Below are positions 30,304 through 57,013 of a stretch of DNA of 64,000 nt, one piece after another; the first letter of the stretch is position 1; every line of letters starts with the position of its first letter. A program made the translations under genes and the position numbers. A model generated the notes under the pieces. The model was given only the letters and a program-made list of their open reading frames with translations. It was not told the DNA's origin and made no database searches. The stretch is taken from assembly GCA_016290135.1 (NCBI GenBank), contig JAEESW010000004.1:40066-104065 (forward strand). The letters are read 5' to 3'. Origin of the DNA: a bacterium. GTDB lineage: Bacteria > UBP6 > UBA1177.

Positions 30304-31875
30304 TTATTCTATAAAGTATTGCTGCTCTGCTTTAGATTTAGATGATTCTTGAATTGACCGGATTCTTTCTTTTGTTTCTTCCGACAGATTGTCGCAGCCA
30401 TAGAATGCAAAATCACCGATTTTTTTAACAGAATCCGGAATGACGACAGAAACAAGACTGCTGCAACCAGAAAATGCACTTTCATCGATTTCCGTAACAG
30501 ATTCAGGAATAACTAGGGAAACAAGGCCGGAGCACTCTCCAAATGCGCTGGAACCGATTCTTTTTACGGAATTCGGAATAACTATGGAAGTAAGAGAAGT
30601 CTGACCATGAAATGCAAGCCAATCGATCACCTTAACGGAATCCGGTATTACTGTGTTCGCGCAGCCGCAGATCAGTTTGTTGGTTTTTGTTTCAATTATA
30701 GCATTACAGTTGTTTCTGGAATCGTATTTCGGATTGTTTTTGTCTACAATTATAGAAGTCAGTTTTCTGCAATTACAAAATGGGTCGGGACCGATTTTCG
30801 TAACGGAATCGGGAATAACTATGGATGTGAGGCTGCAGCCTAAAAAAGCATAACCATTAATTCTCTTAACGGAATTCGGGATAACTATTGAAGTGAGGTT
30901 TGTACAGTTGCTAAATGCACTCCAATCGATTTCCGTAACGGAATTTGAGATATTTACCGAGGTAAGACTTGTGCACCCCCAAAATGCATTTTCACCGATT
31001 TTCGTAACGGAGTTTGGAATAACTATTGAAGTGAGTCCGGAACATTTAACGAATGCATTATCACCGATTTTTTTAACTGAATCCGGTATGACAGTGCCTG
31101 CGCAACCGCAGATCAATTTTTTGCTTTTTGTTTCAATTACTGCATTACAGTTGTCTCTGGAATCATATTTCGGGTTATTTTTATCTACGGTGATCGATGT
31201 CAGGTTTACACAATTGCTGAAAGCATCTTCGCCGATTTCTGTAACGGAATCAGAAAATACAACAGAGGTGAGACTAGTACAGCCGGAAAAAGCATACTCG
31301 CCAATCTCCTTAACTGATTCCGGGATAACTACGGAAGTGAGACTTGTGCAGCCCATAAATGCATAGTTACCGATTTTTGTTGCACACTTCGAAATAACAA
31401 CGGAAGCAAGAGTTGTGCTGTCCTTAAAGGCCGAATCATCAATTATCTTTACGGAATCGGGAATAACTATTGAAGTAAGCCCGATGCAGTCACCGAATGC
31501 TCTGGAACCGATTTCTGTAACGGAATTAGGGATATCTATGGAAGTGAGTCTAGCACAGCCTGTAAATGCAAAATCGTTGATTTTCTTAACGGATTTTGGA
31601 ATAACGACGGATGAGAGTGTTTTACACAAAGTAAATGCACGTTCTCCGATTTCTGTTAAAGAATCAGGAAGAACGATTGAAGTGAGTGTTTCGCTGTCGC
31701 GAAAACCATTTTTATCAATAATTCTTTCCACTGGTTTTTTTAGTTTTATAACTCCTTTGCCGTCCGCAAAATCGTGGGAAAAGGCTTCTTTCGCAATCCA
31801 ATTGTTAAATTTTTTATTGGATAATTTTTTGGAACTTTCATAACAAATAGTTATCGACAATGTTTCTGTTTCCAT
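30304..31875 (-). CDS. BspA/TpLRR (LRR_5) leucine-rich-repeat protein
   Basis: Many LTSIVIP.SV..IG..AF.GC repeats; two copies of VDKNNPKYDSR.NCNA.IETK; no signal peptide seen. Confidence 0.92.
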   Translation of the reverse strand: METETLSITICYESSKKLSNKKFNNWIAKEAFSHDFADGKGVIKLKKPVERIIDKNGFRDSETLTSIVLPDSLTEIGERAFTLCKTLSSVVIPKSVKKINDFAFTGCARLTSIDIPNSVTEIGSRAFGDCIGLTSIVIPDSVKIIDDSAFKDSTTLASVVISKCATKIGNYAFMGCTSLTSVVIPESVKEIGEYAFSGCTSLTSVVFSDSVTEIGEDAFSNCVNLTSITVDKNNPKYDSRDNCNAVIETKSKKLICGCAGTVIPDSVKKIGDNAFVKCSGLTSIVIPNSVTKIGENAFWGCTSLTSVNISNSVTEIDWSAFSNCTNLTSIVIPNSVKRINGYAFLGCSLTSIVIPDSVTKIGPDPFCNCRKLTSIIVDKNNPKYDSRNNCNAIIETKTNKLICGCANTVIPDSVKVIDWLAFHGQTSLTSIVIPNSVKRIGSSAFGECSGLVSLVIPESVTEIDESAFSGCSSLVSVVIPDSVKKIGDFAFYGCDNLSEETKERIRSIQESSKSKAEQQYFIE

Positions 31876-32352: not shown

Positions 32353-33024
32353 ATGGATAAATCAACATTTGCAAACATAGAAAAATCAATTTCACCGGAA
32401 CGTCTCGCTATCTACAAAACGGACGGTGCAAATAACGAGGTGGCGCTTTCGAGGTATATTTACAACATAGAATTGTGTAAGAACCTTTATCCGCTCATAA
32501 ATATTTTTGAAGTGACATTGCGAAATTCAATAGACTGTGCTCTTACAGAATTTTTCGATGTGCCGGATTGGAACGATGTAATCCCGCTCATGCAGACAGA
32601 ACAGATAATGGTCAACGAAGTAAAAAACAAAATTAAAAAGAAAGGCAAAGAATACTCTCACCCTCGTCTTGTCTCTGAACTTACACTTGGATTCTGGGTC
32701 GCTCTCATGGGGAAAAAATACAACTCTCAGAAATTCAGATCTTTCATGATAAAAAATATGTTTTATGATTGCCCTTCAGAACAGAAAAGTTCCGCTGTAT
32801 TACAGAAAAATCTTGCTGAAATACGGTTTCTGCGAAACAGGATTGCTCACCATGAGCGCATATCGCACTGGAAGGATTTGAATCAAAAACATGATTTGAT
32901 TCTGGATTTTATCCGTTGGATGTCGCAGGATATGCACAAAATAGCGGTAAACAATGACACATTCGAAGCAGTTTACAAAAACGGGATCGCTCCCTTTGAA
33001 CGATTTGTGAAGGAAAAACTGTAA
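32353..33024 (+). CDS. Abi-like (Abi_2/AbiD-AbiF type) HEPN protein
   Basis: IS.ERL..Y, Y.YNI.L, FEV.LRN.I, LVSELTLGFW and HEPN RxxxxH motif RNRIAH. Confidence 0.8.
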   Translation: MDKSTFANIEKSISPERLAIYKTDGANNEVALSRYIYNIELCKNLYPLINIFEVTLRNSIDCALTEFFDVPDWNDVIPLMQTEQIMVNEVKNKIKKKGKEYSHPRLVSELTLGFWVALMGKKYNSQKFRSFMIKNMFYDCPSEQKSSAVLQKNLAEIRFLRNRIAHHERISHWKDLNQKHDLILDFIRWMSQDMHKIAVNNDTFEAVYKNGIAPFERFVKEKL

Positions 33025-34114: not shown

Positions 34115-36610
34115 ATGCAGAACGAGGGAAAAATCGCGATTCTGGATGTGAGTTCATATATTTTCAGGGCTTTTCACGCGCTGCCGCCGATGACATCGCC
34201 TGACGGAAGGCCGGTGAATGCGATATACGGCTTCATCAACATGTTTTTGAGGACGATGTCGAAGTTCAAAGGTTTTGCGGCGGTCGCGGCGCTTGACAGC
34301 AAGACGGAGACTTTCAGGAAAAAGGCGTATCCTGAGTACAAGGCTAACAGAAAGGAGGTCGATCCTGACCTGAAATCACAGTTCGAGCTCATCACGCCGA
34401 TGCTTGAGGCGCTCAATATTCCGGTTTTTGCCTCCGACGGCTTCGAGGCGGATGACATCATTGCTTCGATCGTAGCCAACAATCCGGATAAAGAGATAAT
34501 CATCATCTCTTCCGACAAGGACTTGATGCAGCTCGTAGGCGGGAACGTCCTCATGTACGACAGCATGAAGGATAAGGTCATCGATCCTGCGGCTGTGCAG
34601 GAAAAATACGGCGTTATGCCGGCTCAGATGCTCGATTTTCTCGCTCTTTTGGGCGACAGCTCCGACAATGTTCCCGGAATGCCGAAAGTGGGGCTTAAAA
34701 CCGCAGCGGAACTTCTCAACAAATACGGCTCCGCTGATAATATTTACCAGAATCTGAGTGCTCTGAAACCTGCATTGCAAAAGGGTTTTACAGAAAATAA
34801 GGAACAGTTTGAGTTCTCGAAATTTCTTATAAAACTTGATTCTTCAGTAAAACTGGACGGCTGCAAAAAATGCTTCGATCCTTGGGAAAATCCCGATACC
34901 GAAAAAATCGTGAAACTCTGCTCCGAATTAGGTTTTGCGTCGATTCTGAAAAAGATTGGAAGTGATTCTTCGGCAAAAAAGGAACCGGCTCCCGAACCGA
35001 AGAAAACGATCGAGCTTCACGAAAAATGGGAAGCCGGCGAATTTGATGTAAAAAGCGGTGAAACCCTTTACGGAAGCACCTTTTACGGCAGTTTTTATGT
35101 CGCAAAAGAGGGCAGATTCATGCCGCTTGGGATTGCAGACCTGCCTCAGGATTCGACAGTTTATTCATTTGAAGTGAAAGAGTTCCTTGATGCGCCTTTT
35201 CCGAAAGGAATAAAATTCATCGACTTGCAGATCTACTATTTCTGTCACGACAGCGGAAGACACGGTTATTCGCCGGAAGAGATCGCGGAGGCCCTGGGTC
35301 TAGGCGAGGTCAGCAAAGATTCTCCCGAGCAGTTCTTTGCATTTTTAGAAAAACTTCGCGCAAAGATCGAGGAAAAGCACGAAGACAAGTCGTTCCTTCT
35401 GAACGGGATAGAAATGCCGCACCTTGAGGTCGTCCGCGCGATGGAGCAGAACGGGATAAAAGTCGATCTTGACGAAACGAACAGGCTGAGGACTGAATTT
35501 TTAAGCAAGATCAATGACTTGACGAAGCAGATCTATGAGGCTGCAGGAACGGTTTTCAATCCCAATTCACCGAAACAGCTTGCCGAAATTTTGTTTGACA
35601 AACTTCAGCTCAAAGGCGGCAAAAAGACAAAAACCGGCTACAGCACAGGCCACGAGGTCCTTGAAAATGTTGCAGAGGAAAACGATCATCCGCTCCCCAA
35701 ACTCATAATCGAGAACAGAAAATACTCGAAGCTTGTTTCGACTTACCTTGAGCCGATCGCTGCAAAGACCGCTTCCGACGGCAGGCTTCACACTTCCTAC
35801 ATCGTGACTTACGCCGCGACGGGCAGACTCGCGAGCAGGGAACCGAACCTGCAGAATATCCCGACGAGGACCGAGGACGGGCAGAAGATCAGAGGTCTTT
35901 TCGTTGCCGAAAAAGGGTTCAAGCTTCTCTCTCTCGATTACAGCCAGATCGAACTCAGAATTTTGGCTGCACTCAGCAAAGAGCCTGAATTTATTGACGC
36001 TTTCAAGAACGGCGAAGACATCCACAGACGCACGGCCGCAGCGATCTTCGGCACTCTTCCTGAATTCGTGGACAAAGAGATGCGCCGCAACGCAAAGGCG
36101 GTCAACTTCGGCATAATCTACGGGATGCAGGCATACAAACTCTCGGTCGATACAGGGGTCGATATCGCTTTTGCGAAAAAATACATCGACAACTACTTCG
36201 CGTGCTACCCGAAGATCAAGCAGTTCATCGACGGCACGATACGCGAGGCGAGAGAAAACGGATATGTCGAAACTTTTTACGGGCGCAGGCGCTACATTCC
36301 CGAGATCGCGAACACCAACAAAAATATCGCGAAATCGGGCGAAAGAATGGCGGTGAACACTGTGATCCAGGGAACCGCAGCCGATGTTATCAAGCAGGGA
36401 ACGGTTTTAGTTTACAAAATGCTGCAAGAGGAATGCCCCGAAGCGCGGATTCTGCTACAGATTCACGACGAACTTATCATAGAGATCCCCGAAAACAGAC
36501 TTGATATTGCCGAAAAATGCGCTGAAAAAATGCGGGAAGCAGGCAAAGATTTCGAAGTGCCGCTCGATGTCAACTACTCTGTCGGCGGCAACTGGGCTGA
36601 ACTCAAGTAG
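34115..36610 (+). CDS. polA: DNA polymerase I
   Basis: 5'-3' exonuclease (FRAFHA, YKANR, EADD, GD.SDN) plus polymerase motifs DYSQIELR, AKAVNFGIIYG, QIHDEL; proofreading domain looks degenerate. Confidence 0.98.
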   Translation: MQNEGKIAILDVSSYIFRAFHALPPMTSPDGRPVNAIYGFINMFLRTMSKFKGFAAVAALDSKTETFRKKAYPEYKANRKEVDPDLKSQFELITPMLEALNIPVFASDGFEADDIIASIVANNPDKEIIIISSDKDLMQLVGGNVLMYDSMKDKVIDPAAVQEKYGVMPAQMLDFLALLGDSSDNVPGMPKVGLKTAAELLNKYGSADNIYQNLSALKPALQKGFTENKEQFEFSKFLIKLDSSVKLDGCKKCFDPWENPDTEKIVKLCSELGFASILKKIGSDSSAKKEPAPEPKKTIELHEKWEAGEFDVKSGETLYGSTFYGSFYVAKEGRFMPLGIADLPQDSTVYSFEVKEFLDAPFPKGIKFIDLQIYYFCHDSGRHGYSPEEIAEALGLGEVSKDSPEQFFAFLEKLRAKIEEKHEDKSFLLNGIEMPHLEVVRAMEQNGIKVDLDETNRLRTEFLSKINDLTKQIYEAAGTVFNPNSPKQLAEILFDKLQLKGGKKTKTGYSTGHEVLENVAEENDHPLPKLIIENRKYSKLVSTYLEPIAAKTASDGRLHTSYIVTYAATGRLASREPNLQNIPTRTEDGQKIRGLFVAEKGFKLLSLDYSQIELRILAALSKEPEFIDAFKNGEDIHRRTAAAIFGTLPEFVDKEMRRNAKAVNFGIIYGMQAYKLSVDTGVDIAFAKKYIDNYFACYPKIKQFIDGTIREARENGYVETFYGRRRYIPEIANTNKNIAKSGERMAVNTVIQGTAADVIKQGTVLVYKMLQEECPEARILLQIHDELIIEIPENRLDIAEKCAEKMREAGKDFEVPLDVNYSVGGNWAELK

Positions 36611-36619
36611 GAGGAAAGC

Positions 36620-37909
36620 ATGAAAACCAACACACTGATTTTAGGTGCCGGGCTCACCGGCTTGTCTGCCGCGTATCACGCAAAAGGGAAGGATTTTCTT
36701 GTCGTTGAGAAAAGTGATCATGTCGGCGGGATCTGCACGAGCGAGAAGAAAAACGGCTTCATTTTTGACCAGACCGGGCATTGGTTTCACGTGAAAACAT
36801 CCGAGGTTCGTTCACTGATGACGCGGCTTTTCGGGCAAAATACAGTTGAAATAGAACGCAAAACTTTTGTCTTTTCGCACAATGTTTTTACGCAGTATCC
36901 TTTTCAGTCTAACACTTTCGGCTTGCCGCCTCAGGTGATAAAAGAGTGCGTTTTGGGCTTTGTCAAAGCATACTACGAAAACGACAAGTCTAAGGCGCAT
37001 GAAAACTTCTACGAATGGTGCATGGCCTATCTCGGAGAGGGGATCTCAAAGCATTTCATGATCCCTTACAACACCAAGATCTATACCGTCCACCCGAAGG
37101 ACTACGCGAGCCACTGGTGCGACTACTATGTGCCGAAACCCACGCTGGAACAGGTGATAGAGGGTGCCGTGACTGCGCCTGAGCAGAAAAATATCGGATA
37201 TAACGCGAAGTTTTTCTATCCGAAGGAAAACGGCATCGGGGAGTTGCCGGAACGCCTCTTTGACCTCTGTGAAAAAGAGAAATTCATCTTCAACGCAGAG
37301 CCTGTTTCGATAGATGCGGCGCAGAAAAAGGTGAAATTAAGCAACGGAATGGAAATCGTTTATGAAAAACTCATAAATACGATCCCGCTCAACAAATTTC
37401 TGAAACTTCTTACCAATTTGGCAGAGTTCCCGGCGCATGAAATTGCAGACAGATTGAAAATCGCGCACGTCAGCTATTTCAACGCCGCTTTCAAGAAGCC
37501 GTGCGGACACACGGGGCACTGGTTCTATATTCCGGAAGAAAAGTTCATGCCTTACAGAGTCGGATCTTTCTCCAATATTTACAGTAAGTTGGCTCCTATG
37601 GGTAAAGGAAGTGCCTACATCGAGTTTACCCATCAGGAAGAAAATATCGATACGGAACTTTTCTACAAAAAAAGCGTCGAACTTCTTCTTGCAATGGGAC
37701 TGATCAGTTCTGAAAACGACATCGAATTCATGGATTACCGCAAAATTGACGCCGGATATGTCATCTACCACAAAGAATATTTCGACGACATGGCACTCAT
37801 CGAGAAGTGGTGCGAAAAGAACTCCGTGAAACTTGCCGGAAGATACGGAAAGTGGACCTATTCCGCGATGGAAGACGCCATTTTGGACGGAATGAAAGCG
37901 ATAAAATAG
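36620..37909 (+). CDS. FAD-dependent oxidoreductase (protoporphyrinogen oxidase/UDP-Galp mutase-like)
   Basis: ILGAGLTGL, E....VGG, FD.TGH, PYNTK, F.YP..GIG, GRYG.W.Y..ME. Confidence 0.8.
   Translation: MKTNTLILGAGLTGLSAAYHAKGKDFLVVEKSDHVGGICTSEKKNGFIFDQTGHWFHVKTSEVRSLMTRLFGQNTVEIERKTFVFSHNVFTQYPFQSNTFGLPPQVIKECVLGFVKAYYENDKSKAHENFYEWCMAYLGEGISKHFMIPYNTKIYTVHPKDYASHWCDYYVPKPTLEQVIEGAVTAPEQKNIGYNAKFFYPKENGIGELPERLFDLCEKEKFIFNAEPVSIDAAQKKVKLSNGMEIVYEKLINTIPLNKFLKLLTNLAEFPAHEIADRLKIAHVSYFNAAFKKPCGHTGHWFYIPEEKFMPYRVGSFSNIYSKLAPMGKGSAYIEFTHQEENIDTELFYKKSVELLLAMGLISSENDIEFMDYRKIDAGYVIYHKEYFDDMALIEKWCEKNSVKLAGRYGKWTYSAMEDAILDGMKAIK
36783..36798. promoter_or_regulatory. parS-like site (degenerate)
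   Basis: GGTTTCACGTGAAAAC; core TTTCACGTGAAA intact. Confidence 0.4.
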
Positions 37910-38063: not shown

Positions 38064-38984
38064 CTATTTGTTGATCTTGTAGCGGAGGAGTTCTTTCAGG
38101 AAGCGGCGCAGCTTATCCTTGAAAGTGTATCTGTATCTCGCAATAAAAAGTTTGTTCATTTCTTCATCAAATTCCAGAGTATCGGGGAGGACGACCTTTT
38201 CGCCGTTTTGGGCTATAATCGGTTTGTTCGGCGCTTTGCCTGCGTTTCCGCAGTGGATGCCGCTTCCGTCGAAGCCGATATTTTCAACAAGAGAATATGT
38301 CGGAAAAACGGTGAAACGGTTTTTAGAATAGTTGTTATAATACCAGCGTATAGCCCAGGAATTCATTGTTCCGTTCATCTGTGCTCTGAGGATATAGGGC
38401 AGGTCGTCTCCGCCGCGCCTGAAAAGTTTGTTTTTGGTTTTATCGGTGAATATTTCCTGCCAGCCGAGCACGTCCCAGTCCGCTTCGTTCCAACGGTCTT
38501 TCCAAGTTCCCCATCCCCAACTTGAATAGCGGTAAGTCAGAAAAACAGGGGAATTCCAATTCTCCGGAATCTGCATCGGAACGTTGTATCCCGAAATCGA
38601 GAAAATTCTTTCGTCGTTTTCGTATTTTTCCAGAGCTTCATTCATGAATTCGAGAAAATTCGGAGCTGTGAGAATGTCATCCTCAATGATTATAGCTTTT
38701 CCGTGCTCGTTTATGACCTTGGTGATACCTGAAATTATGGAATCGGCGCACCCGATGTTGGTTTCGGCCTCGGTGACGACAACTTCTTTAAAACCATCAA
38801 TTTTATTAATTATTTCGCGAACACGGTTCACATTTTCAAAGTCTTTTTCCTTCTTTGCCGCATCGGAAAAAACATAAAGAATCGAATCTTTGGCCAAAGT
38901 GTTTTTTTTCAATGCGTTCAGCACCATTTCGGTGTGTTTCGGTCGGTTGTAGACGAATAAAATTATCGGGGCGAAGTCAGTCAT
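38064..38984 (-). CDS. Glycosyltransferase (GT-A fold)
   Basis: API.LFVYNRP.H, IIIEDD, SWGWGTW, SWAIRW, NIGFDGSG.HC. Confidence 0.88.
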   Translation of the reverse strand: MTDFAPIILFVYNRPKHTEMVLNALKKNTLAKDSILYVFSDAAKKEKDFENVNRVREIINKIDGFKEVVVTEAETNIGCADSIISGITKVINEHGKAIIIEDDILTAPNFLEFMNEALEKYENDERIFSISGYNVPMQIPENWNSPVFLTYRYSSWGWGTWKDRWNEADWDVLGWQEIFTDKTKNKLFRRGGDDLPYILRAQMNGTMNSWAIRWYYNNYSKNRFTVFPTYSLVENIGFDGSGIHCGNAGKAPNKPIIAQNGEKVVLPDTLEFDEEMNKLFIARYRYTFKDKLRRFLKELLRYKINK

Positions 38985-39558
38985 TTGAGTTCTCCAAAGA
39001 ACTATAATTTTTGTTACTGCAATATTTTTGTTTTGGACTGTTCGGTTTGTCCGGAATTAGAGGAAATATTTTTTTAAGGGATATTAGAGGCACAAGGATT
39101 TTAGTTCTGAAGTAATCACGAGATTTGATGCCACAGAATAGTTGCATTTCCTCTCTGGTGCGAGGAGTAAAGCAATAGTCCAGCAACTGATTCAGTCGCG
39201 TGACGTCAAGCGATATTGTGAGAGGTTGACCATCAACTTGACCACTATCTTGCGTACCAGCTTGCGTACTGACTTGCGTATCAGCTTGACCACTAGCGAT
39301 AGTTTTTGCTGAAATTGAAAGCGGAATTATAGTTTTAAAAACATCACCTTCAATAAATTCGGGATTTGCACCGCTGTAAAGACGTGTGAACTTATAGCTG
39401 TTGCGCATACCGGAACCGAGTTCGTCCGCATAGCCTATTTCCCTGAATACTCTGGAAATTGCCGGATTTTTCGGGATTTCGTTTTTCGCTTCTTTGTATT
39501 CTATCTGATAATTTTCGCCATGACGGATAAGTTTGAGAAGTTCATCAGGTAAATTCAT
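38977..39558 (-). pseudogene. Internally deleted AlbA_2/HATPase_c_4/wHTH (RecG-like ATP-binding regulator) gene
   Basis: AlbA N-terminus GE...IEYKEA joined after about 30 aa to KNPAI..VF..IGY.DELGSG; C-terminal PDKPNSPKQKY wHTH. Confidence 0.7.
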
Positions 39559-48825: not shown

Positions 48826-50108
48826 TTGTTCTCCGTAAACTCATAATTAAGTAACAGATTCCCTTGATTTCTCGGCGGAAGTATATTTGTTTTATAAAAA
48901 TCACCATAAGCTACTTCCAAACAAAATGCTTTAGCAAGCCAATCTGAAACGAGACCATCTGAATAAACACAAAATGTTCCGAAGTATTTGCCTGGATAAA
49001 GAGGGATAGATTTAATTATAAAATCAAAACTTCCGATTTTCTTGGAATTTAAAAGTTTTTTTGAATCAATTCCCAAAGTTTTGGTCGAAAGATGAGCGAT
49101 TCTAATATCAAGTTCATTATCTATCCCAATATCAAAAGTTACAGATTTTAGAGAGTCGGAAAATTGATCATAAGAAATCCTTATTACGACATCATCACCG
49201 GAATGTATTGTTGAATCGCCATTGAGATTAAAAATTTCAATTTTAGAAATTCGAATATTTCCATTTCCTTTGCGGTCTGGTCTTTCGGAAAATTTAAGCG
49301 AGGCTTGTTTTGTTGTCATATAATTCAGATATTCTGCAATTTGAGTCTCTACCGAGCCTTTTTCAGAAGCAAATCCGTTCTGTAAAGTGATACATGAATC
49401 GCATAACTGTCTCACAGCCGCCATATTGTGACTGACGAAAAGCACAGTTCTTCCTTCTTTCTTGCTGACATCGCCCATTTTTCCGAGGCATTTTTTCTGG
49501 AATTCGGCATCTCCGACGGCCAAAACTTCGTCAACAACGAGAATTTCTGGGTCAAGGTGCGCTGCGACTGCGAATGCGAGGCGGACATACATTCCGCTGG
49601 AATAGCGTTTTACTGGCGTATCGATGAATTTTTCAACTCCTGAAAAGTCAATGATTTCATCGAGTTTTCTGTCGATCTCGTGTTTTCTCATGCCGAGGAT
49701 GGCACCGTTGAGATAGATATTCTCTCTGCCGGTGAGTTCGGGATGGAAGCCTGTTCCGACTTCAAGGAGGGATCCGATGCGCCCTTTGATCTTGATGCAG
49801 CCGCTGGTGGGGGAGGTGACACGCGACAAAATTTTGAGCAGTGTCGATTTTCCGGCACCGTTTGCACCGATGATGCCCAAAACTTCGCCCTGCCTGACAT
49901 CGAAAGAGACATCTTTCAGGGCGTAGATAAAATCTGTGTCGGCATTGGCATTTTTGTTTGAAGCCATGGATATGCGAGAGTTGGGATCGTCCTTTCCGCG
50001 GATCTTTGCCCACCACGCTTGCAGATCTTTGGCGAGAGTGCCGTGGTTGATAAGACCCAGCTGATAAAACTTTGAGATGTTTTCAACTTTGATGACTGTT
50101 TCGCTCAT
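48822..50108 (-). CDS. wzt: Polysaccharide ABC transporter ATPase with Wzt C-terminal domain
   Basis: GANGAGKSTL, GFHPELTGRENI, PVKRYSSGM, DEVLAVGD..FQKKC, C-terminal beta domain; start MSETVI at 50108. Confidence 0.92.
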   Translation of the reverse strand: MSETVIKVENISKFYQLGLINHGTLAKDLQAWWAKIRGKDDPNSRISMASNKNANADTDFIYALKDVSFDVRQGEVLGIIGANGAGKSTLLKILSRVTSPTSGCIKIKGRIGSLLEVGTGFHPELTGRENIYLNGAILGMRKHEIDRKLDEIIDFSGVEKFIDTPVKRYSSGMYVRLAFAVAAHLDPEILVVDEVLAVGDAEFQKKCLGKMGDVSKKEGRTVLFVSHNMAAVRQLCDSCITLQNGFASEKGSVETQIAEYLNYMTTKQASLKFSERPDRKGNGNIRISKIEIFNLNGDSTIHSGDDVVIRISYDQFSDSLKSVTFDIGIDNELDIRIAHLSTKTLGIDSKKLLNSKKIGSFDFIIKSIPLYPGKYFGTFCVYSDGLVSDWLAKAFCLEVAYGDFYKTNILPPRNQGNLLLNYEFTENK

Positions 50109-50201
50109 GAGCCTCAACACACAAAACAAAAACAGTGTAAAATCCCACAAAGTGCGGTAAATGTCAATAGAAAAGGGGAAAGAGGTGGTTTTTGTGCCGC
50201 C

Positions 50202-50403
50202 AACCCCTCAGCCGCTGCTTCGACGAGCTCAGCAACCGGCAGCTCCCCTAATTTAGGGGCGCCTTTCTAACATTAGCAAGCCTCCACTGAGTCAGGGGAG
50301 GTGTCACGCAGTGACGGTGGGGTCTGTAAAGCCGCCAACCCCTCAGCCGCTTTGCGGCAGCTCCCCTGATTTCAGGGGCGCCTTGACGGGGCGCCTATCT
50401 AAC
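50202..50403. repeat. REP-like cluster (A, inverted B, A) downstream of DUF559 gene
   Basis: A = ACCCCTCAGYC..GGCAGCTCCCCT..AGGGGCGCCT at 50202 and 50337; inverted copy AAGCCTCCACTGAGTCAGGGGAGGTGTCACGCAGTGACGGTGGGGT at 50278. Confidence 0.9.
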
Positions 50404-50770
50404 GTTGCGTAGGATCTGCACATATTCTTTGTTGGATAATGTCATCAATTTTTGTGCAGACAGATGAAAAATCGGAGTCTATTTCTTTATTTGGAAAACG
50501 CAGGACCATAAAGCCTAATGCATTTAAAATATTGGTTCTTTCGGCATCGTGAGCTAATCCGTCTTCTGTGTAGTGCTGGCTTCCGTCAAGTTCTATGATT
50601 AATTTTGCTTTTGCACAGCAAAAATCAACAACAAATTTGTTTATGATTTTCTGCCTACATATTTTTATAGGATAATGCCGCAAAAAATCGAACCATAAAT
50701 GCTTTTCCTGAGGAGTCATTTCTTTGCGCAACATTCGCGCTGCTTCTATCAGAAGCCGATTCTTTCTCAT
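50399..50770 (-). CDS. DUF559 (Vsr-like) endonuclease domain protein
   Basis: AR.LRK.MT..E..LW, RQ..I..FVVDF.C....LIIELDGSQH, D..R...L...GF.VLRF.N. Confidence 0.9.
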   Translation of the reverse strand: MRKNRLLIEAARMLRKEMTPQEKHLWFDFLRHYPIKICRQKIINKFVVDFCCAKAKLIIELDGSQHYTEDGLAHDAERTNILNALGFMVLRFPNKEIDSDFSSVCTKIDDIIQQRICADPTQR

Positions 50771-50850
50771 AAATTCAATAAAATGAAAAACATAGTAAAC
50801 ATATACAAAATAGAAATTCCAAGTATTTTGTCAAATTTTTAAAAAGCTGC

Positions 50851-50959
50851 AACCCCTCAGTCAACCTTTGGTTGGCAGCTCCCCTAATTTAGGGGCGCCT
50901 ATCTAACATTAGCAAGCCTCCACTGAGTCGGGGGAGGTGTCACGCAGTGACGGAGAGGT
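50851..50959. repeat. REP-like inverted doublet upstream of DUF559 gene
   Basis: A (50851-50900), TCTAACATTAGC spacer, B (50914-50959); near-identical to 50238-50323. Confidence 0.9.
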
Positions 50960-51043
50960 CAGGATCCTGATTCGGTTTTTCTAGCGATTTCCGGGGATTT
51001 CATATTTTTTGCTTTTTCAACCTGCTTTTTGTGCAAAATTGTC

Positions 51044-51162
51044 AAAAAATCTTGATTTGGTGTGAAAGTAACCCATAAAAAATCTTGATTTGGTGTGAAA
51101 GTAACCCATAAAAAATCTTGATTTGGTGTAAAAAATGCCGTATAAAAATCTTGATTTGGTGT
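51044..51162 (+). repeat. 4 x 33-bp direct-repeat array overlapping promoter of ATPase 1
   Basis: 20-bp core (A/T)AAAAATCTTGATTTGGTGT at 51044, 51077, 51110 and 51143 with 13-bp spacers; contains TTGATT-17-TATAAA (51118-51146). Confidence 0.92.
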
Positions 51163-51185
51163 AATTCGCACTCTGGAGGGATATC

Positions 51186-52538
51186 GTGAGAAGAAAAATC
51201 CTTGAAAAAATAGCGGAATGGAAGAGGACTGGCAACGGAAAAACAGCCTTACTCATTGATGGTGCCCGGCGTGTCGGAAAAAGTTATGTCGCGGAAGAAT
51301 TTGCCAAGAATAATTATAAATCATACCTTTTGATTGATTTCAACGAAGCCGGGCAGGAAATTAAAGATCTTTTCGAGCAGAATCTCAGGGATTTGGATCA
51401 TTTGTTCACTTTTTTGTCTGCAGTATACAGAGTAAAGCTTTACGAAAGAGAATCTCTGATTATTTTTGATGAAGTCCAGTTATGTCCCAGAGCTCGCGCC
51501 GCAATAAAATTTTTAGTGGCAGACGGCAGATACGACTACATCGAAACAGGTTCGCTCGTCTCTATCCGCAAAAATGTGAAGGATATAGTAATTCCTTCCG
51601 AAGAGCGTCATTTGAAAATGTATCCCATGGATTTCGAGGAGTTTTTGTGGGCTTTAGGCGAAGATGCTTTGTGGCAGGTTATCAAAACCTGTTTTGAAAA
51701 AAAGCAACCTCTTGCTCAGGCACTTCACCGAAAGGCGATGACGCTTTTTCGTGAATATCTTATCATCGGCGGAATGCCTCAGGCGGTAAGCGAATACCTG
51801 TCATCAAAAGATTTTCAAACCGTTGACGCTGTAAAAAGGGATATTCTTTCGTTGTACCGCGACGATATTATCAAACATGCTTCAGGTTATGAGCGTAAAG
51901 TCACCGGAATTTTTGATGAAATACCTTCACAACTTTCAAAACATGAAAAGAAGTTTTCTCTCTCCGCATTGGGCAAAGGGATAAGGTCAAGAGATTATGA
52001 GAGCGCATTTCTTTGGCTTGAAGATTCAATGATTGTCAATATTTGCTACAATTCAACAGAACCGAATATCGGCCTTAAACTCAACCGTGACAACTCGTCA
52101 ATGAAGATTTACATGGGTGATACCGGCCTTTTGATAAGCCATGCATTTGATGAAAACGGAATAGTAACCAATGAAATTTACAAAAAACTTCTGTTTGGAA
52201 AACTTGAAGTCAACGAGGGAATGCTTTTTGAGAATATTGTGGCGCAGATGCTCACTGCCAACGGTCACAAACTTTATTTTTATTCAAACGCGGCAAGAAA
52301 CGACAGAACTTCCAGAATGGAAATTGATTTCCTTATCGCGAAATCAAAAATTACCGACCGGCACAATATTTCTCCTCTGGAAGTTAAGTCAGGCAAGAAC
52401 TACACTCTTTCTTCAATAAACAAATTTTGCAATAAATTCAGAGAACAACTTAACACCCCGGTTGTGCTTCACACCGAAAACCTGTTTAAGAAAGACGAGG
52501 TTGTCTGCCTTCCCGTTTACATGACGATGTTTTTGTAA
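51186..52538 (+). CDS. AAA_14 ATPase + DUF4143 (PD-(D/E)XK-like C-terminus) protein 1
   Basis: GARRVGKS, FDEVQ, TGS, PMDFEEFL, GGMP, K.YM.DTGLL, G.LFEN, EIDF...PLEVKS. Confidence 0.9.
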   Translation: MRRKILEKIAEWKRTGNGKTALLIDGARRVGKSYVAEEFAKNNYKSYLLIDFNEAGQEIKDLFEQNLRDLDHLFTFLSAVYRVKLYERESLIIFDEVQLCPRARAAIKFLVADGRYDYIETGSLVSIRKNVKDIVIPSEERHLKMYPMDFEEFLWALGEDALWQVIKTCFEKKQPLAQALHRKAMTLFREYLIIGGMPQAVSEYLSSKDFQTVDAVKRDILSLYRDDIIKHASGYERKVTGIFDEIPSQLSKHEKKFSLSALGKGIRSRDYESAFLWLEDSMIVNICYNSTEPNIGLKLNRDNSSMKIYMGDTGLLISHAFDENGIVTNEIYKKLLFGKLEVNEGMLFENIVAQMLTANGHKLYFYSNAARNDRTSRMEIDFLIAKSKITDRHNISPLEVKSGKNYTLSSINKFCNKFREQLNTPVVLHTENLFKKDEVVCLPVYMTMFL

Positions 52539-52565
52539 TTCAACCTGCTTTTTCGTGCGAAATCC

Positions 52566-52589
52566 GGAGACGTATCCCTATACGTCTCC
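52566..52589. repeat. GTAG-family-like REP palindrome
   Basis: GGAGACGTAT-CCCT-ATACGTCTCC. Confidence 0.6.
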
Positions 52590-52639
52590 TTTTCAAGGCA
52601 CCCTATTGAAAATTTTTGCGGATTTCCGCATTTTTCTTC

Positions 52640-52683
52640 ACTGAAAACTTTTACCAAAACCCGAAAAAGTTTTCAGTAGCGAC
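52640..52683 (+). repeat. 44-bp hairpin repeat, copy 1
   Basis: ACTGAAAACTTTT..AAAAGTTTTCAGTAG; 41/44 identical to 55847-55890. Confidence 0.85.
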
Positions 52684-52742
52684 AGAAAAATTGTCAGTGT
52701 ATTGGGAAAAATGTCGATGTGGCGACTAAATTTTCAATAGAC

Positions 52743-52771
52743 TTGACTGTTCACGGCAATTCAGTTAAAAT
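52743..52771 (+). promoter_or_regulatory. Putative sigma70 promoter of ATPase 2
   Basis: TTGACT-17-TAAAAT. Confidence 0.55.
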
Positions 52772-52854
52772 TATCATAACTCTAAAAGTTGTTTTTAGAG
52801 TATGTTATTGAAATTTTGGTCGACAATGCCGAACTTTTTTCAGTAGGTGTTTTT

Positions 52855-54093
52855 ATGAAAAGAGATTTATACACCCGCCAACTTGTTAGAAAGATGCATA
52901 ACGGTATGATTAAAGTTGTGACTGGGATCCGCAGATGCGGCAAGTCATATCTTTTATTCAACCTTTTCCGCAACCATCTTGTCAGTGAAAATGTTCCTGA
53001 AGATCATATTCTTGAAATGGCGTTTGATCTTTACGAGAACAAGAAATTTCAGAATCCTGAAGTTTTTTATCCGCATATAAAGTCGCAGATCAAAGACGGC
53101 GGCATGTATTATGTCTTGTTGGATGAGGTTCAACTTCTCGGCGATTTTGAAGCGATACTCAATAGTTTGTTGAGAATGCAGAATGTGGATGTTTATGTGA
53201 CCGGAAGCAATGCAAAGTTTTTGTCGAAAGATGTGATCACAGAGTTTAGGGGGCGTGGAGACCAGATCCACCTCTATCCCCTGTCATTTGCTGAATTTCT
53301 GCAAGCTTATAAAGGAAGCAGCATCGAGGCATGGAGGGAATATTCCATGTACGGCGGATTACCGAAACTCCTGGATATTTCTGATGATCGCGATAAGGCT
53401 GTTTATCTTGAATCCATTTTTTCAGAAACGTATTTAAAGGACATTTTGGAAAGAAACGATGTCCGCAATACAAATGAAATTTCTGAACTGTTTGATTTTA
53501 TTGCATCTTCTGTCGGAGGGCTTTCCAATCCAAAAAAACTCTCGGATACTTTCAAATCTGTAAAAAATGTTTCGATTCACCCCGACACAATAAAAACCTA
53601 TCTGGATTATTTTGAGGAATCTTTTTTAATAAGCCGCGCAGTCCGCTATGACATTAAAGGAAAAAAATATATCAATACTCCTAGTAAATATTACTTCACG
53701 GATATGGGGTTAAGGAACGCCCGTTTGCATTTCAGGCAATATGAAGAAACCCATATTATGGAAAACATCATTTACAATGAGCTTTTGACACGCGGTTATT
53801 CCGTTGATGTCGGTGTTGTTGAAGTCACAGAACGCACTGCGGAACAGAAAAAGGTCCAAAAACAACTTGAAGTCGATTTTGTGTGCAATCTCGGTTCTTC
53901 GCGATTGTATATTCAGTCAGCGCTTAGTATTTCTGATGCTCAAAAAGAAAAGCAGGAACAAAATTCCTTGGAACGCATTCCGGATTCATTTGAAAAAATT
54001 ATTATCGTCAAAGATATTCCAACGCATTATAATGATTCAGGGATACTCATCTTAAATCTGTTCGATTTTTTGATGAACACAAATCCGTTTTAA
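52855..54093 (+). CDS. AAA_14 ATPase + DUF4143 protein 2
   Basis: TGIRRCGKS, LDEVQ, TGSN, PLSFAEF, YGGLP, KYYFTDMGLRN, MENI, EVDFV...YIQS; likely start MKRDLY. Confidence 0.9.
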   Translation: MKRDLYTRQLVRKMHNGMIKVVTGIRRCGKSYLLFNLFRNHLVSENVPEDHILEMAFDLYENKKFQNPEVFYPHIKSQIKDGGMYYVLLDEVQLLGDFEAILNSLLRMQNVDVYVTGSNAKFLSKDVITEFRGRGDQIHLYPLSFAEFLQAYKGSSIEAWREYSMYGGLPKLLDISDDRDKAVYLESIFSETYLKDILERNDVRNTNEISELFDFIASSVGGLSNPKKLSDTFKSVKNVSIHPDTIKTYLDYFEESFLISRAVRYDIKGKKYINTPSKYYFTDMGLRNARLHFRQYEETHIMENIIYNELLTRGYSVDVGVVEVTERTAEQKKVQKQLEVDFVCNLGSSRLYIQSALSISDAQKEKQEQNSLERIPDSFEKIIIVKDIPTHYNDSGILILNLFDFLMNTNPF

Positions 54094-54228
54094 CACGAAT
54101 ATCTGACGGAATTTCAGAAAAAATACTCAAAAACAGTAAAAGAAACAATAGTTTTTTCGCAGAAAGACCGTTTTGACGAAAATGGAATCAAAATCCTGCC
54201 GTTTTATCTCTTGCCGTTCGTAGTGTAA
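54094..54228 (+). pseudogene. C-terminal remnant of a fourth DUF4143 ATPase
   Basis: Open frame HEYLTEFQKKYSKTVKETIVFSQKDRFDENGIKILPFYLLPFVV* resembles the tails of the neighbouring paralogs (VCLPVYM, ILNVPLYL); no start codon. Confidence 0.6.
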
Positions 54229-54277
54229 GAATTTCGTGCAAAAATCATCTGAAAACACCGGAAAAAGTGATTTTTTT

Positions 54278-54336
54278 CGTCATCTTGAACGAATGTGAAA
54301 GATCTACAGGGATTCTTCGCTGCGTTCAGAATGACG
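54278..54336. repeat. CGTC-family REP doublet
   Basis: CGTCATCTTGAACGAATGTGAAAGATCT..GGATTCTTCGCTGCGTTCAGAATGACG; CGTC/GACG termini. Confidence 0.75.
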
Positions 54337-54362
54337 TGGAAAACTTTGAAGAACTGCACTTT

Positions 54363-55682
54363 TTAGGCAATTTTCATAGCGATTTCAATGAGTTTGCCGA
54401 GTTCGTCGGTCAGATAAAGCGGAACATTCAGGATCTTTCCATCGAAAGAAAGATTTTTTAGTGAAAAACGGATCGCCAAAGGTGTTATTTTACTGAAATC
54501 GTTGAGATATTTCTTGATGCTTGCCGCATGGACATTTATTCCGGCCTTTACTTCGACAGGGAGAATGTCGTTTCCTTTCTGAATGACAAAATCGACTTCA
54601 TGAGCGGTATCAGACCAATAATAAGGTTTTGTATCGAAGTGGCGAAGAAGAGTCTGAAAAACGAAATTTTCGGTCAAAGCACCCTTAAATTCGGTGAAAA
54701 GCCTGTTTCCTTCGCTAAAAGCGGAAGTCGCAAGCCTTGAATGCCTGCGCAGAAGTCCCACATCCCCCATATAGATTTTGAACGCCCCGATATCCTCGTA
54801 AGCACTCATCGGAAGTCCCGGTTTTGTTATACGCGGTACGCATCCGACAACATTTGCATTTTTAAGCCACTCGAGAGCGTTTTCGTATTCTCTCGCGCGA
54901 GCCCCTTCTTTAACTGCAGAATAGAGGAACTTTTTATTTTCACGGGCGAGTTGCGACGGAAGCGATGTCCATATCCTTCTGATCTTAGGCACATCGAAAT
55001 TGGGTGCATGCTTTCCGAAATCGCTTTCGTAGGAATCAAGGATCGCGCTCAAGATCTTGTCAACTTCGGAAATGTCGGCCTCTTCGCTCCATATTTTGAC
55101 CGGTTCCGGCATTCCGCCGATCGTAAGATAGATTTTAAGTTTTTCGGTCAACGGGTTTGCGAAAGCGTCGGGAATCGTCTCGATAGAGTCGATATTTTTC
55201 ATGTATTTAAGCAGATTTTCATCTCCGCAGGCAAGCAGGAACTCGCTGAAAGTCATAGGTCCCATATCGAGGAAATCGACTTTGCCTACAGGAAAACCGT
55301 CTGACAGAGTGAGCCCGAGAAGCGATCCTGCGCTTGCGATATAATATTCCGATGCGTCTTCGCAAAAATATTTGAGTGAATTGAGTGCAGCGGGACAAGC
55401 TTGAATCTCATCAAAAATCACAAGAGTCTGCGGTGTGATCTTTTTTCCGGTCGAAACAGCCAGATTTTGGAGAATGCGCCGGACATCTTTTGTAGTTTCG
55501 AAAAATTGGGCATGCTCGGGATTCTTATCGAAATTTATGCTTACAAAGCCGTTCTCAAACTCTTTACCGAACTCTTCAAGGATCCAAGTTTTGCCGACCT
55601 GTCTCGCACCGCGGAGTATCAAAGGCTTTCTGTGTTTCGAATCTTTCCACTTTCTTAAATCATCAATAATGAACCGCTTCAT
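54363..55682 (-). CDS. AAA_14 ATPase + DUF4143 protein 3
   Basis: GARQVGKT, FDEIQ, AGSLLG, PMTFSEFL, GGMPE, KIYM.DVGLL, GALTEN, EVDF...PVEVKA. Confidence 0.9.
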   Translation of the reverse strand: MKRFIIDDLRKWKDSKHRKPLILRGARQVGKTWILEEFGKEFENGFVSINFDKNPEHAQFFETTKDVRRILQNLAVSTGKKITPQTLVIFDEIQACPAALNSLKYFCEDASEYYIASAGSLLGLTLSDGFPVGKVDFLDMGPMTFSEFLLACGDENLLKYMKNIDSIETIPDAFANPLTEKLKIYLTIGGMPEPVKIWSEEADISEVDKILSAILDSYESDFGKHAPNFDVPKIRRIWTSLPSQLARENKKFLYSAVKEGARAREYENALEWLKNANVVGCVPRITKPGLPMSAYEDIGAFKIYMGDVGLLRRHSRLATSAFSEGNRLFTEFKGALTENFVFQTLLRHFDTKPYYWSDTAHEVDFVIQKGNDILPVEVKAGINVHAASIKKYLNDFSKITPLAIRFSLKNLSFDGKILNVPLYLTDELGKLIEIAMKIA

Positions 55683-55764
55683 GGCAATCTCCCTTAAAAA
55701 ATCGCTTGATTATTATTCCAAATCACTTTCAAATCAACAAAAATCACACATTTTTTAAAAATTA

Positions 55765-55780
55765 TGTGATTCCAATCACA
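55765..55780. promoter_or_regulatory. Palindromic operator-like site upstream of ATPase 3
   Basis: TGTGATT-CC-AATCACA; AATCACAC repeated at 55742 and 55774. Confidence 0.5.
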
Positions 55781-55846
55781 CTTTTTGCAGAAATTTTGTG
55801 CAAAAATTATCCGGAAATACCCGGAAAAAGTGGCAGATTTCCACAA

Positions 55847-55890
55847 ACTGAAAACTTTTGCCAAAACCTGAAAAAGTTTTCAGTAGAGAC
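55847..55890 (+). repeat. 44-bp hairpin repeat, copy 2
   Basis: Direct repeat of 52640-52683. Confidence 0.85.
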
Positions 55891-55942
55891 TATGACACAA
55901 ATGCCGTCTATCTGCAGCCTGACGTTGTCTATGTCGCACCGC

Positions 55943-57013
55943 TCACGGTTTTGAAGGGGTAAAATAGCGAGCTTCTATCCGATCCAGAATTTTGGAGATG
56001 TATTTTTCAAAAGGCTTGCGGCAAAGTTCCACGATTATTCCGGCAAGCATCAAAGATACAACAGAGAATAAAATTCTTGCAAAAAGAAAAGGACTGCTTT
56101 CATACATTGGGAATACAAATAATTTGCGATATATATTCCAGCAAAAAGGTCCGGTATGTAAAAGGTATATTCCCAAAGTGCATGTGGCTATGCTATTGAT
56201 TTTTGGATGATAACTGATGCTTAAATGCTGAAAAAATGAAAAAAGTGAGATGCTTAGAATTACCTGAAACAGCGAGTTGTTTCCCCAAAACATGGTTGCT
56301 GCTTCGGTATCTTTGAAGAAAAATTCAATCAAAAAGATATATGAAAAAAGCAGAGCCACAGTGATTGCAAAAACAACCAAACTTCTTTTTGCGGTATTGA
56401 GAACGGGCAATCCGTAAATTTTTATATATGCACCGACAAAATATAACAAAATCATCCAAATATAACGATTATAAAATACCATGGATTCTGTTGATTTGAT
56501 TTGTATAGCAAATAATATGGTTGGAAAGACGCTCCAAATCACAAATTGTGAACAAATCAGAAATTCGAACTCTTTTTTGTTCATCGCAGCAATAAGTTTC
56601 TGTAAAAACGGAGTTAGTGTATAGACAAAAATATATGCTGAAATAAACCACCATTGGCCCTGTAGCACAGGGAAAAACCAACTAGAAAGGTCGTAAGCGT
56701 CAATCGGAGCTTTTGTGAACATTATTGTTGCGCTTCGGCAAATATAAAAATAAAAATAGGCCTGTAAAATTAGCAAAAACAGTTTTTTCCATTTGAAAGT
56801 AGTTGTTGGTAGAAAATATCCGCTAATTAAAATAAAACAGTTGACCCCCAATTCTCCTCCGTAATACAGGATATCATGTAGCAATTTGTTGATAGAAAAG
56901 TCTTTAGTAAAATAAAACTCGCCGCTGCATAATATGGAATGAGAAGCAACAATTGTCGCAATGGATAATATTCTAAGAATTTCAAAATTGCTTTGTCTTA
57001 TTTGTTTTTCCAT
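55943..57013 (-). CDS. Acyltransferase family 3 (membrane O-acyltransferase)
   Basis: RQSNFEILRI, GVNCFILISGYF, WWFISAY, TLGIYLLH; start MEKQ at 57013. Confidence 0.88.
   Translation of the reverse strand: MEKQIRQSNFEILRILSIATIVASHSILCSGEFYFTKDFSINKLLHDILYYGGELGVNCFILISGYFLPTTTFKWKKLFLLILQAYFYFYICRSATIMFTKAPIDAYDLSSWFFPVLQGQWWFISAYIFVYTLTPFLQKLIAAMNKKEFEFLICSQFVIWSVFPTILFAIQIKSTESMVFYNRYIWMILLYFVGAYIKIYGLPVLNTAKRSLVVFAITVALLFSYIFLIEFFFKDTEAATMFWGNNSLFQVILSISLFSFFQHLSISYHPKINSIATCTLGIYLLHTGPFCWNIYRKLFVFPMYESSPFLFARILFSVVSLMLAGIIVELCRKPFEKYISKILDRIEARYFTPSKP

Follow-up and report, generated by a model that had tools for sequence, protein, structure and literature searches.

A possible nest of horizontally mobile, single-gene PDC-S01 modules with upstream iterons in the chromosome of a UBP6 bacterium

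The stretch analysed here (the window) comprises 64,000 nucleotides (nt) of contig JAEESW010000004.1 (positions 40,066–104,065, forward strand) in the GenBank assembly GCA_016290135.1 of a bacterium of the UBP6 lineage. The window is chromosomal DNA from the vicinity of the replication origin, and dnaA, dnaN and recF are found at 8–12 kb. Embedded in a low-GC glycan-synthesis cluster (glycosyltransferases, a Wzt-type ABC transporter, an acyltransferase and PMT_2) is an array of three genes that each encode an AAA_14 and a DUF4143 domain. A Pfam scan with curated cut-offs of 52 open reading frames (ORFs) of the window places both domains above the cut-offs in exactly three genes (51186–52538, 52855–54093 and 54363–55682), and these domains are absent from the 44 other large ORFs. 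No integrase, transposase or recombinase family was found among the 52 ORFs by the same scan; an IstB_IS21 match on DnaA is an AAA cross-match and not a transposition gene. The original prediction, made from the letters of the window, had described three divergent paralogues with the remnant of a fourth and no integrase or transposase in the window, and this description stands; that the third gene is on the opposite strand had gone unmentioned. We read the locus as a cluster of single-gene PDC-S01 modules, each self-contained and horizontally mobile, and give this reading a probability of roughly 0.55. The features of the array, and of one site elsewhere in the window that enters the comparison below, are as follows.

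51016–51040 (+): J1, left copy of a 25-nt direct repeat around module 1; junction motif at 51027–51038; ends 3–4 nt before iteron 1
51043–51173 (+): four iterons spaced by 33 nt, core AAAAATCTTGATTTGGTG, 5′ of gene 1
51186–52538 (+): gene 1, 450 residues, AAA_14 and DUF4143, PDC-S01
52539–52640 (+): J2 (unit T_A), right copy of the 25-nt repeat, directly after the gene 1 stop codon; strong hairpin at ~52563–52590 (z = −6.1), then a T-run; second small terminator-like hairpin at 52617–52630
52641–52745 (+): four to five direct repeats of the AAARTTKTCRRT type spaced by 20–22 nt, far 5′ of gene 2
52855–54093 (+): gene 2, 412 residues, AAA_14 and DUF4143, PDC-S01 (sub-model PDLC04787, other than that of gene 1)
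54094–54228 (+): remnant R, final 44 codons of a fourth DUF4143 gene, abutting the gene 2 stop codon
54229–54270 (+): J3, left copy of a ~41-nt direct repeat around module 3; motif at 54232–54243
54274–54337 (strand not assigned): REP-like hairpin between J3 and the gene 3 stop codon
54363–55682 (−, opposite to genes 1 and 2): gene 3, 439 residues, AAA_14 and DUF4143, PDC-S01 (PDLC04786)
55683–55789 (−): upstream region of gene 3, boxes 32 nt apart, perfect TGTGA-N6-TCACA palindrome at 55765–55780
55790–55846 (+): J4 (unit T_B), right copy of the module 3 repeat; motif at 55794–55805, hairpin at 55810–55825
55847–55890 (+): truncated copy (93%) of the first gene 2 upstream repeats
55891–55942 (+): tentative second C-terminal remnant, an open frame to a stop codon at 55940–55942 (by reading), without significant match
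36608–36622 (+): empty site, consisting of the polA stop codon, 9 nt and the amine-oxidase ATG

For gene 2, the ATG at 52855 was chosen as the start; the ORF listing begins at 52789. The 44 in-frame codons of remnant R end in the C-terminal L-P-x-Y signature (L442, P443 and Y445 are nearly invariant in the family alignment), and 54094–54228 is therefore taken to be what is left of a DUF4143 gene. A relaxed tblastn search for further remnants gave mostly noise, with one usable match, in which 54097–54210 is weakly similar to the C-terminus of gene 3 (34% over 38 residues, E = 0.12). The truncated repeats at 55847–55890 are probably the 5′ stump of a lost module of the gene 2 type. An Rfam scan of 50100–56100 returned a single sub-threshold match to a miRNA model, which is meaningless here.

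All three proteins score 64–132 bits against the two Pfam domains (cut-offs 27–28) and match the PADLOC PDC-S01 models from end to end, with E values of 8e-118 (gene 1), 2.5e-117 (gene 2) and 5e-167 (gene 3). Walker A and Walker B motifs are present in all three (GARRVGKS and DEVQ in gene 1), and the D...E-V-K nuclease motif is present in genes 1 and 3; at the E-V-K position an alignment of the three sequences gives gene 2 non-matching residues, in an inexact placement. The structure model of gene 1 is confident (35-sequence alignment; pLDDT of 86.4, pTM of 0.88) and finds its best PDB matches in the archaeal AAA+ ATPases 2qen and 2fna, followed by Apaf-1/CED-4 and ORC/Cdc6, with TnsC and MuB ranking lower and Avs3 among the matches; all of these are generic AAA+ matches, with TM-scores of 0.2–0.4. 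In the model, residues 236–310, which comprise three helices and a β-hairpin, look like a winged helix. A PDB sequence search returned no relative, and among the NCBIfam models none matches the three proteins, the AAA_14 and DUF4143 domains being all that is recognized, without a transposase domain.

PDC-S01 is described as an ATPase fused to a PD-(D/E)XK domain and is ranked fourth by frequency among the ‘defence systems’ of prokaryotes, with validation pending (PMC12988326); in rumen genomes it is reported to be the most frequent single locus (PMC13356809). PDCs were nominated through their embedding inside other defence operons (10.1101/2024.01.29.577857), and DUF4143 appears among the PD-(D/E)XK families whose function is unknown (PMC3424549). 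The defence role that the original prediction had suggested for an uncharacterized family was thus already proposed, in unvalidated form, under the PADLOC name, and the family itself is not a new one.

The extent of the unit that moves was taken from a comparison with related loci, namely the best 80 (52–86% identity) of 127 stretches that encode relatives of gene 1, among 197 candidates from species-representative genomes; individual loci are given L numbers where they have to be told apart. Two of them, L005 (‘uncultured Spirochaetales bacterium’) and L007 (a metagenome-assembled genome, MAG, from deer gut), are 83–89% identical to the window at the nucleotide level over ~10 kb and are syntenic with its 32–38 kb region to either side of the junction of polA and the amine-oxidase gene. 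At this point, where the window has only 9 nt, both carry ~1471 additional nt, which form a module with an orthologue of gene 1. The insert starts 2–5 nt before the first of three AAAAATCTTGATTTGGTG repeats and ends at its own stop codon, and the ribosome-binding site of the downstream gene is intact. Among nine close orthologues in differing contexts, homology begins at iteron 1 and ends 0–14 nt past the stop codon. The blastn homology with Bacilli loci that are 65–68% identical starts ~110 nt 5′ of the start codon, and the repeats thus move together with the gene. These alignments support a mobile unit that would run from the iteron block to the stop codon. The expectation that the genes are gained and lost as discrete units is thus borne out by clean presence and absence at the polA site, but the edges lie at iteron 1 and the stop codon and not, as had been proposed, at the junction motif; genome-to-genome breakpoints do not fall at that motif. 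L061 and L006, considered as a second empty/filled pair, were set aside, as their homology ends ~55 nt before the module and the other side is mismatched, so that no boundary can be read. A tRNA search of L001–L003 found none; L002 has a tRNA/tmRNA-like 3′ end (...CCACCA) at 6190–6295, ~100 nt past the module, and ARAGORN calls no gene in this locus.

Iterons were counted as copies of an approximate 14-mer in 77 upstream regions of the gene 1 type (76 loci and the window), with 315 other upstream regions of the same loci as controls. Four copies are present in ten regions, three in 51, two in 12 and one in four; at least two are thus found in 73/77 and at least three in 61/77, compared with at least three in 12/315 controls. 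The spacing is 33 nt in 110 of 144 cases, 34 nt in 19 and 32 nt in five (32–34 nt in 134/144). When the window was scored with a weight matrix derived from other loci alone (138 iterons, 56 loci), its top four matches were the four iterons of gene 1. The core varies by clade (TTGATTTGGTG, TTGAAAACGTG, CTCGAAAAGGTG and others), and the 33-nt layout is also found 5′ of paralogues that are only 31–45% identical to gene 1 or gene 3. Iterons are present in cultured strains, in Segatella copri DSM 18205 and on a Glaesserella parasuis plasmid; a Fusobacterium animalis plasmid has two TGTGA-N6-TCACA boxes ~33 nt apart, and plasmid homologues of gene 2 have two boxes 74 nt apart without 33-nt iterons. 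Iterons 1 and 2 of gene 1 are 100% identical over 53 nt (51044–51129), and the four units of the window, compared with two or three in the closest orthologues, point to a recent unit duplication.

Each of the three window genes has ~110–210 nt of its own upstream repeats with promoter-like hexamers, and in several hosts each 33-nt unit can also be read by eye as a −35/−10 pair. We infer that the iterons are candidate binding sites of the module’s own protein, with a part in autoregulation and perhaps in mobility. A search of the literature on DUF4143, PDC-S01 and COG1373 gave, in the portions of text available, no description of iterons. Within the literature searched, the iterons, the precise boundaries and the recurrent flanking duplications appear to be undescribed.

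The junctions between the modules are marked by the 12-mer TTTYGTGCRAAA, which has four matches in the 64 kb (at 51027, 52551, 54232 and 55794), all on the plus strand and all at module junctions. The expected number is 0.19, and none of 100 shuffles of the window reaches four, in agreement with the same-orientation motif that had been noticed at each junction. A 15-mer is exact at both 51016 and 52539, a test that is weak alone, as 14 of 100 shuffles also give two matches when two mismatches are allowed. The repeat around module 1 (J1/J2) matches in 24/25 nt with one indel and one mismatch and scores 17.5, the 99th percentile of the null being 14.0; that around module 3 (J3/J4) covers 37 nt at 81% identity (54230–54266 and 55792–55828), with a local alignment of 40/41 nt that scores 23.5 against a null maximum of 12.5. 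The bracketing of module 1 from 51016 to 52539 and of module 3 by ~42-bp repeats, as originally described, is thereby confirmed. Further on, J2 and J4 have a 44-nt stretch in common (93%; copy at 55847–55890). This similarity beyond the 12-mer indicates that the four sites are copies of one sequence rather than a short signal that arose four times independently. A unit of ~60–100 nt (the J unit), composed of the motif, a CCGG-containing hairpin and a GCGGATTTCCGC-like element, is present twice, as J2 and J4; J3 corresponds to its first ~41 nt and J1 to its first 25 nt. On the minus strand of J4, the hairpin followed by the T-rich half of the motif scores as a terminator, just downstream of the minus-strand acyltransferase gene, and we read the J unit as a bidirectional terminator region.

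The motif does not recur with the family. In the relatives, TTTYGTGCRAAA is found at the chance level (2/80 loci, with one match lying within an iteron of L022 and the other at a different place), so that the idea of a family-wide boundary sequence is not supported. Apart from the REP-like hairpin, blastn-short returned only chance matches of 14–18 nt to the J unit from the 80 related loci, and there is no further copy in the window; orthologous loci do not share a conserved 3′ flank past the stop codon. We conclude on this sequence evidence that the motif is part of a local, duplicated terminator-like target and not a recombination site of the family; the J unit looks like duplicated target DNA. 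That the motifs are relics of iterons was considered and rejected, since by the weight matrix they rank 189th–2162nd of ~128,000 positions and at best resemble the 3′ half of an iteron. A dif/Xer-type reading was dropped by eye, as the motif has no ATAA-N6-TTAT core. The REP-like hairpin at 54274–54337 has a stem of ~14 nt and copies of 86–100% identity in L061 (twice), L002 and L004, with a weaker one in L035, and looks like a small dispersed repeat of the lineage.

Flanking direct repeats were sought at the related loci by local alignment of the flank 5′ of the module with the 100 nt that follow the stop codon, with flanks paired across loci as the null. The 99th percentile of the null is exceeded at 11/69 loci and, with tighter flanks, at 8/65 (0.65 expected, about a tenfold excess), with 16/65 above the 95th percentile. 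The independent cases are the window, L002, a Bacilli group and L070 and, more weakly, L001, L004 and L068. Four of these (the window, the Bacilli group, L068 and L070) have a right copy that begins 0–5 nt past the stop codon. The repeat consists of the end of the upstream host gene and its terminator hairpin in the Bacilli group and L068, and of ~100 nt that take in the start of the next gene in L070; as the repeated sequence differs by context, the repeats appear to be target-derived. Among 11 modules examined, only modules 1 and 3 of the window lie above the null. No terminal inverted repeats were detected, the inverted flank match exceeding the 99th percentile of the null at 0/69 loci. A preferred target is locally plausible, with modules 1 and 3 sitting 25 and ~41–42 nt into copies of the same terminator-like unit.

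At 12/80 loci a second DUF4143-like stretch lies in the flanking DNA stored with the locus, which extends up to 5 kb to either side. The array in L038 (Bacteroidales) comprises a frameshifted gene (796–2057), an internally deleted module (2063–2299) and two intact genes. The deleted module retains both ends of its neighbour, with 171 nt at the 5′ side (96%) and 71 nt at the 3′ side (99%). Each of the four modules opens with a 39-nt box directly after the preceding stop codon, and in L038 the boundary motif clearly belongs to the 5′ end of the following module. L038 is a close analogue of the window, where the stump at 55847–55890 and the possible C-terminal remnant behind it have the same look.

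The three genes are only 24–34% identical to each other (gene 2 24% and gene 3 34% to gene 1). Gene 1 has relatives of 86% identity in other MAGs of the species-representative set; among the matches listed in a protein search, which gave at least 7997 relatives at E ≤ 1e-20, the best identity is 90%, with a large cloud near 76%. Gene 2 shares 54% identity with a gene on a Roseburia plasmid, and gene 3 shares 56% with one on a Fusobacterium plasmid. As every one of the three paralogues has much nearer relatives in other phyla than beside it in the array, the modules were acquired separately. The best 80 relatives of gene 1 (52–86%) come from Spirochaetales, UBP6, Bacillota, Victivallaceae/Lentisphaerae, Bacteroidales, Tenericutes, Alphaproteobacteria and Desulfovibrio and from one archaeon, a member of the Methanomassiliicoccales. 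The few named relatives among the matches listed are Eubacteriales, Oscillospiraceae, Eubacteriaceae and Lachnospiraceae; 57/120 of these matches are on contigs shorter than 3 kb, which is weakly informative. A plasmid collection contains 239 records that match gene 2, of which 175 are Acinetobacter plasmids. Relatives of gene 1 (≤59.6%) also occur on 14 short, unannotated ‘Bacteriophage sp.’ records of 4–24 kb from human faecal samples, the phage status of which is uncertain.

In the reading that we favour, a module would consist of a short upstream block of direct repeats (two to four, 33 nt apart, in the gene 1 type) and one ORF, the product of which would combine an ORC/Cdc6- or STAND-like AAA+ ATPase, a winged-helix-like linker and a PD-(D/E)XK nuclease domain. 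Three different modules and at least one decayed module would have been acquired separately and side by side, in the terminator region that follows the minus-strand acyltransferase gene in the glycan-synthesis cluster. Modules 1 and 3, in opposite orientations, would each lie inside one copy of the J unit, flanked by a duplication of its first 25 and ~41 nt, respectively; the duplications would date from the insertion events and represent long target duplications that vary in length. Repeated hits on the same terminator region would explain why its first part is present four times in one orientation. The protein itself we infer to be a nuclease in a conflict role, whether defensive or selfish.

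Several observations count against this picture. No flanking repeat is found at 58/69 loci or in 9/11 paralogue modules, and six of the 11 positive loci represent one orthologous Bacilli context, which reduces the independent cases to about five. The repeat copies are 70–96% identical and range in length from 17 to ~100 nt, and we know of no transposition chemistry that yields such variable and imperfect repeats; a fair alternative is that the duplications stem from slippage, from unequal crossing-over or from recombination among terminator or REP copies that were already in place, which could look the same. The cleanest insertion, at the polA site of L005 and L007, shows neither a target duplication nor inverted repeats, and with three genomes its direction (insertion or precise loss) cannot be polarized. 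No near-identical second copy of the Segatella copri module was found, and hence there is no sign of recent transposition within that genome. The protein would be one candidate to bind the iterons, but in Bacteroidales a promoter-like box can be read 5′ of or between them, so that the iterons may instead have a role at the RNA level. As for a defence role, one representative of PDC-S01 is reported to have given no protection against T4, T5 and T7 in E. coli B (10.1101/2024.09.26.614923).

The rival that deserves most attention, although we think it unlikely, is passive accumulation, in which horizontally acquired defence-type genes gather in a permissive spot and the J repeats are unrelated terminator or REP elements copied by slippage or unequal crossing-over. 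The J unit does read as a terminator, the recurrence of the REP-like hairpin in related genomes shows that such small repeats exist in the lineage, flanking repeats are missing at most loci, and no transposase or integrase (52 ORFs), no terminal inverted repeats (0/69) and no recent second copy in S. copri were found. What this explanation leaves unaccounted for is that the motif and the J unit occur nowhere else in the 64 kb, nor the J unit in the 80 related loci, that flanking repeats exceed the null about tenfold (8/65 against 0.65), that the right copy abuts the stop codon in several independent contexts and that the module boundaries are identical in unrelated hosts. At the other end stands a stronger form of the mobile-module reading, which we regard as doubtful: PDC-S01 genes would be autonomous single-gene mobile elements and not (only) defence genes, the ATPase with its winged helix recognizing the iterons at the 5′ end of the element and the nuclease domain placing widely spaced nicks in hairpin or terminator targets, so that insertion would duplicate tens of nucleotides of the target. 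If true, it would explain the abundance of the family, its embedding in operons and systems, and arrays with duplicated junctions.

The remaining explanations are far less probable. An iteron-type mini-replicon, with an ORC/Cdc6-like initiator, the iterons as origin and small circles that replicate and then integrate, is very improbable. Direct repeats beside an ORC/Cdc6-like AAA+ gene would suit it, as would a 2630-bp circular Prevotella nigrescens DSM 13386 record (L082, NZ_CP133466.1) that consists of a gene of the gene 2 type and a TaqI/Eco57I-like restriction-modification fragment. However, this record may be an assembly artefact rather than an excised circle, and in another strain (L083, NZ_CP082843.1) the identical protein is encoded in the chromosome between two Eco57I-like coding sequences, beside an Mpi-family invertase; moreover, the fold matches are generic, a helicase-loading partner is not evident and homologues of the gene 2 type lack 33-nt iterons. 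The integron-like cassette stack, one of two possibilities raised in the original prediction and taken here with attC-like motifs and an integrase encoded outside the window (as in clusters of attC sites lacking an integrase, CALIN), scarcely deserves more credit than this and, if anything, rather less. The constant orientation of the motif whatever the orientation of the gene, the bracketing of modules 1 and 3 and the ATTCAAC with which J2 opens, which by reading fits RYYYAAC, all recall such a stack, but a regular-expression search of both strands of 50771–56000 found no RYYYAAC/GTTRRRY pair 40–150 nt apart, J3 and J4 have no core, the 52 ORFs include no integrase, each gene is preceded by a promoter-like repeat region of its own where integron cassettes are mostly promoterless, and orthologous modules elsewhere are without the motif, two of them between housekeeping genes. 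Local tandem duplication and divergence of one ancestral gene with its 3′ flank is the least probable of all: three paralogues and remnants do adjoin with related junction sequences, but genes of 24–34% identity stand beside junction repeats of 81–96% identity, each gene has far closer relatives in other phyla and the three upstream repeat systems differ.

If the modules are mobile as we propose, the abundance of PDC-S01 and its embedding in defence operons, the criterion by which it was nominated, could reflect selfish spread and not immunity, and censuses of defence systems would need to be re-read; the conserved 33-nt iterons would also give an experimental handle on an uncharacterized family of AAA+ nucleases. 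If they were acquired only passively, the array would amount to an ordinary variable region, with the iterons as an autoregulatory operator, which would still be a new and testable feature of the family.

Other features lie around the array and elsewhere in the window. A DUF559 gene with a Vsr-like endonuclease fold (50399–50770, minus strand) adjoins the array; it has a weak PADLOC match to a methyl-directed restriction enzyme model (E = 5e-6) and a GC-rich stretch 5′ of it (50830–50960). The spacer between it and the Wzt-type transporter gene (50204–50383) matches 7537–7642 of L061 (75%) and 331–383 of L002 (89%), as a short dispersed element. Low-GC patches amid housekeeping genes contain an Abi_2-like gene (32353–33024), a Fic-like C-terminal domain (38977–39558) and a BspA-type leucine-rich-repeat gene (30304–31875), which are likely to be further horizontally acquired inserts.

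Among known systems, PDC-S01 (COG1373) is the one to which the three proteins belong by both Pfam domains and the full-length model match; the upstream iterons, module boundaries and arrays, which are not mentioned in the passages of its literature that were searched, are seen in the present analysis. The STAND/Avs-type NTPase-nucleases likewise pair a STAND/ORC-like ATPase with a nuclease effector, and Avs3 came up in the fold search; the window proteins are far smaller (~450 residues), have no repeat-type sensor and carry the nuclease C-terminal to the winged-helix-like region. Integron and CALIN arrays share the stack of single genes and the junction repeats in one orientation, whereas the junction repeat of the window is local, is not carried by orthologous modules and accompanies genes with their own promoter regions. 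Free-standing homing endonuclease genes of phages are compact, have their own promoter, lie precisely between conserved genes that they leave intact, are polymorphic among relatives and lack terminal repeats, and the precise intergenic presence or absence of a module in L005 and L007 compared with the window is alike; the modules differ in occupying many sites in many phyla and in having an AAA+ ATPase, iterons and sometimes long flanking duplications. Iteron-regulated plasmid Rep genes encode autoregulated initiators and are typically preceded by evenly spaced direct repeats. With these, and with archaeal Orc1/Cdc6, the window genes share an AAA+/winged-helix-like product and evenly spaced repeats, to which the modules add a C-terminal PD-(D/E)XK nuclease and chromosomal single-copy contexts.

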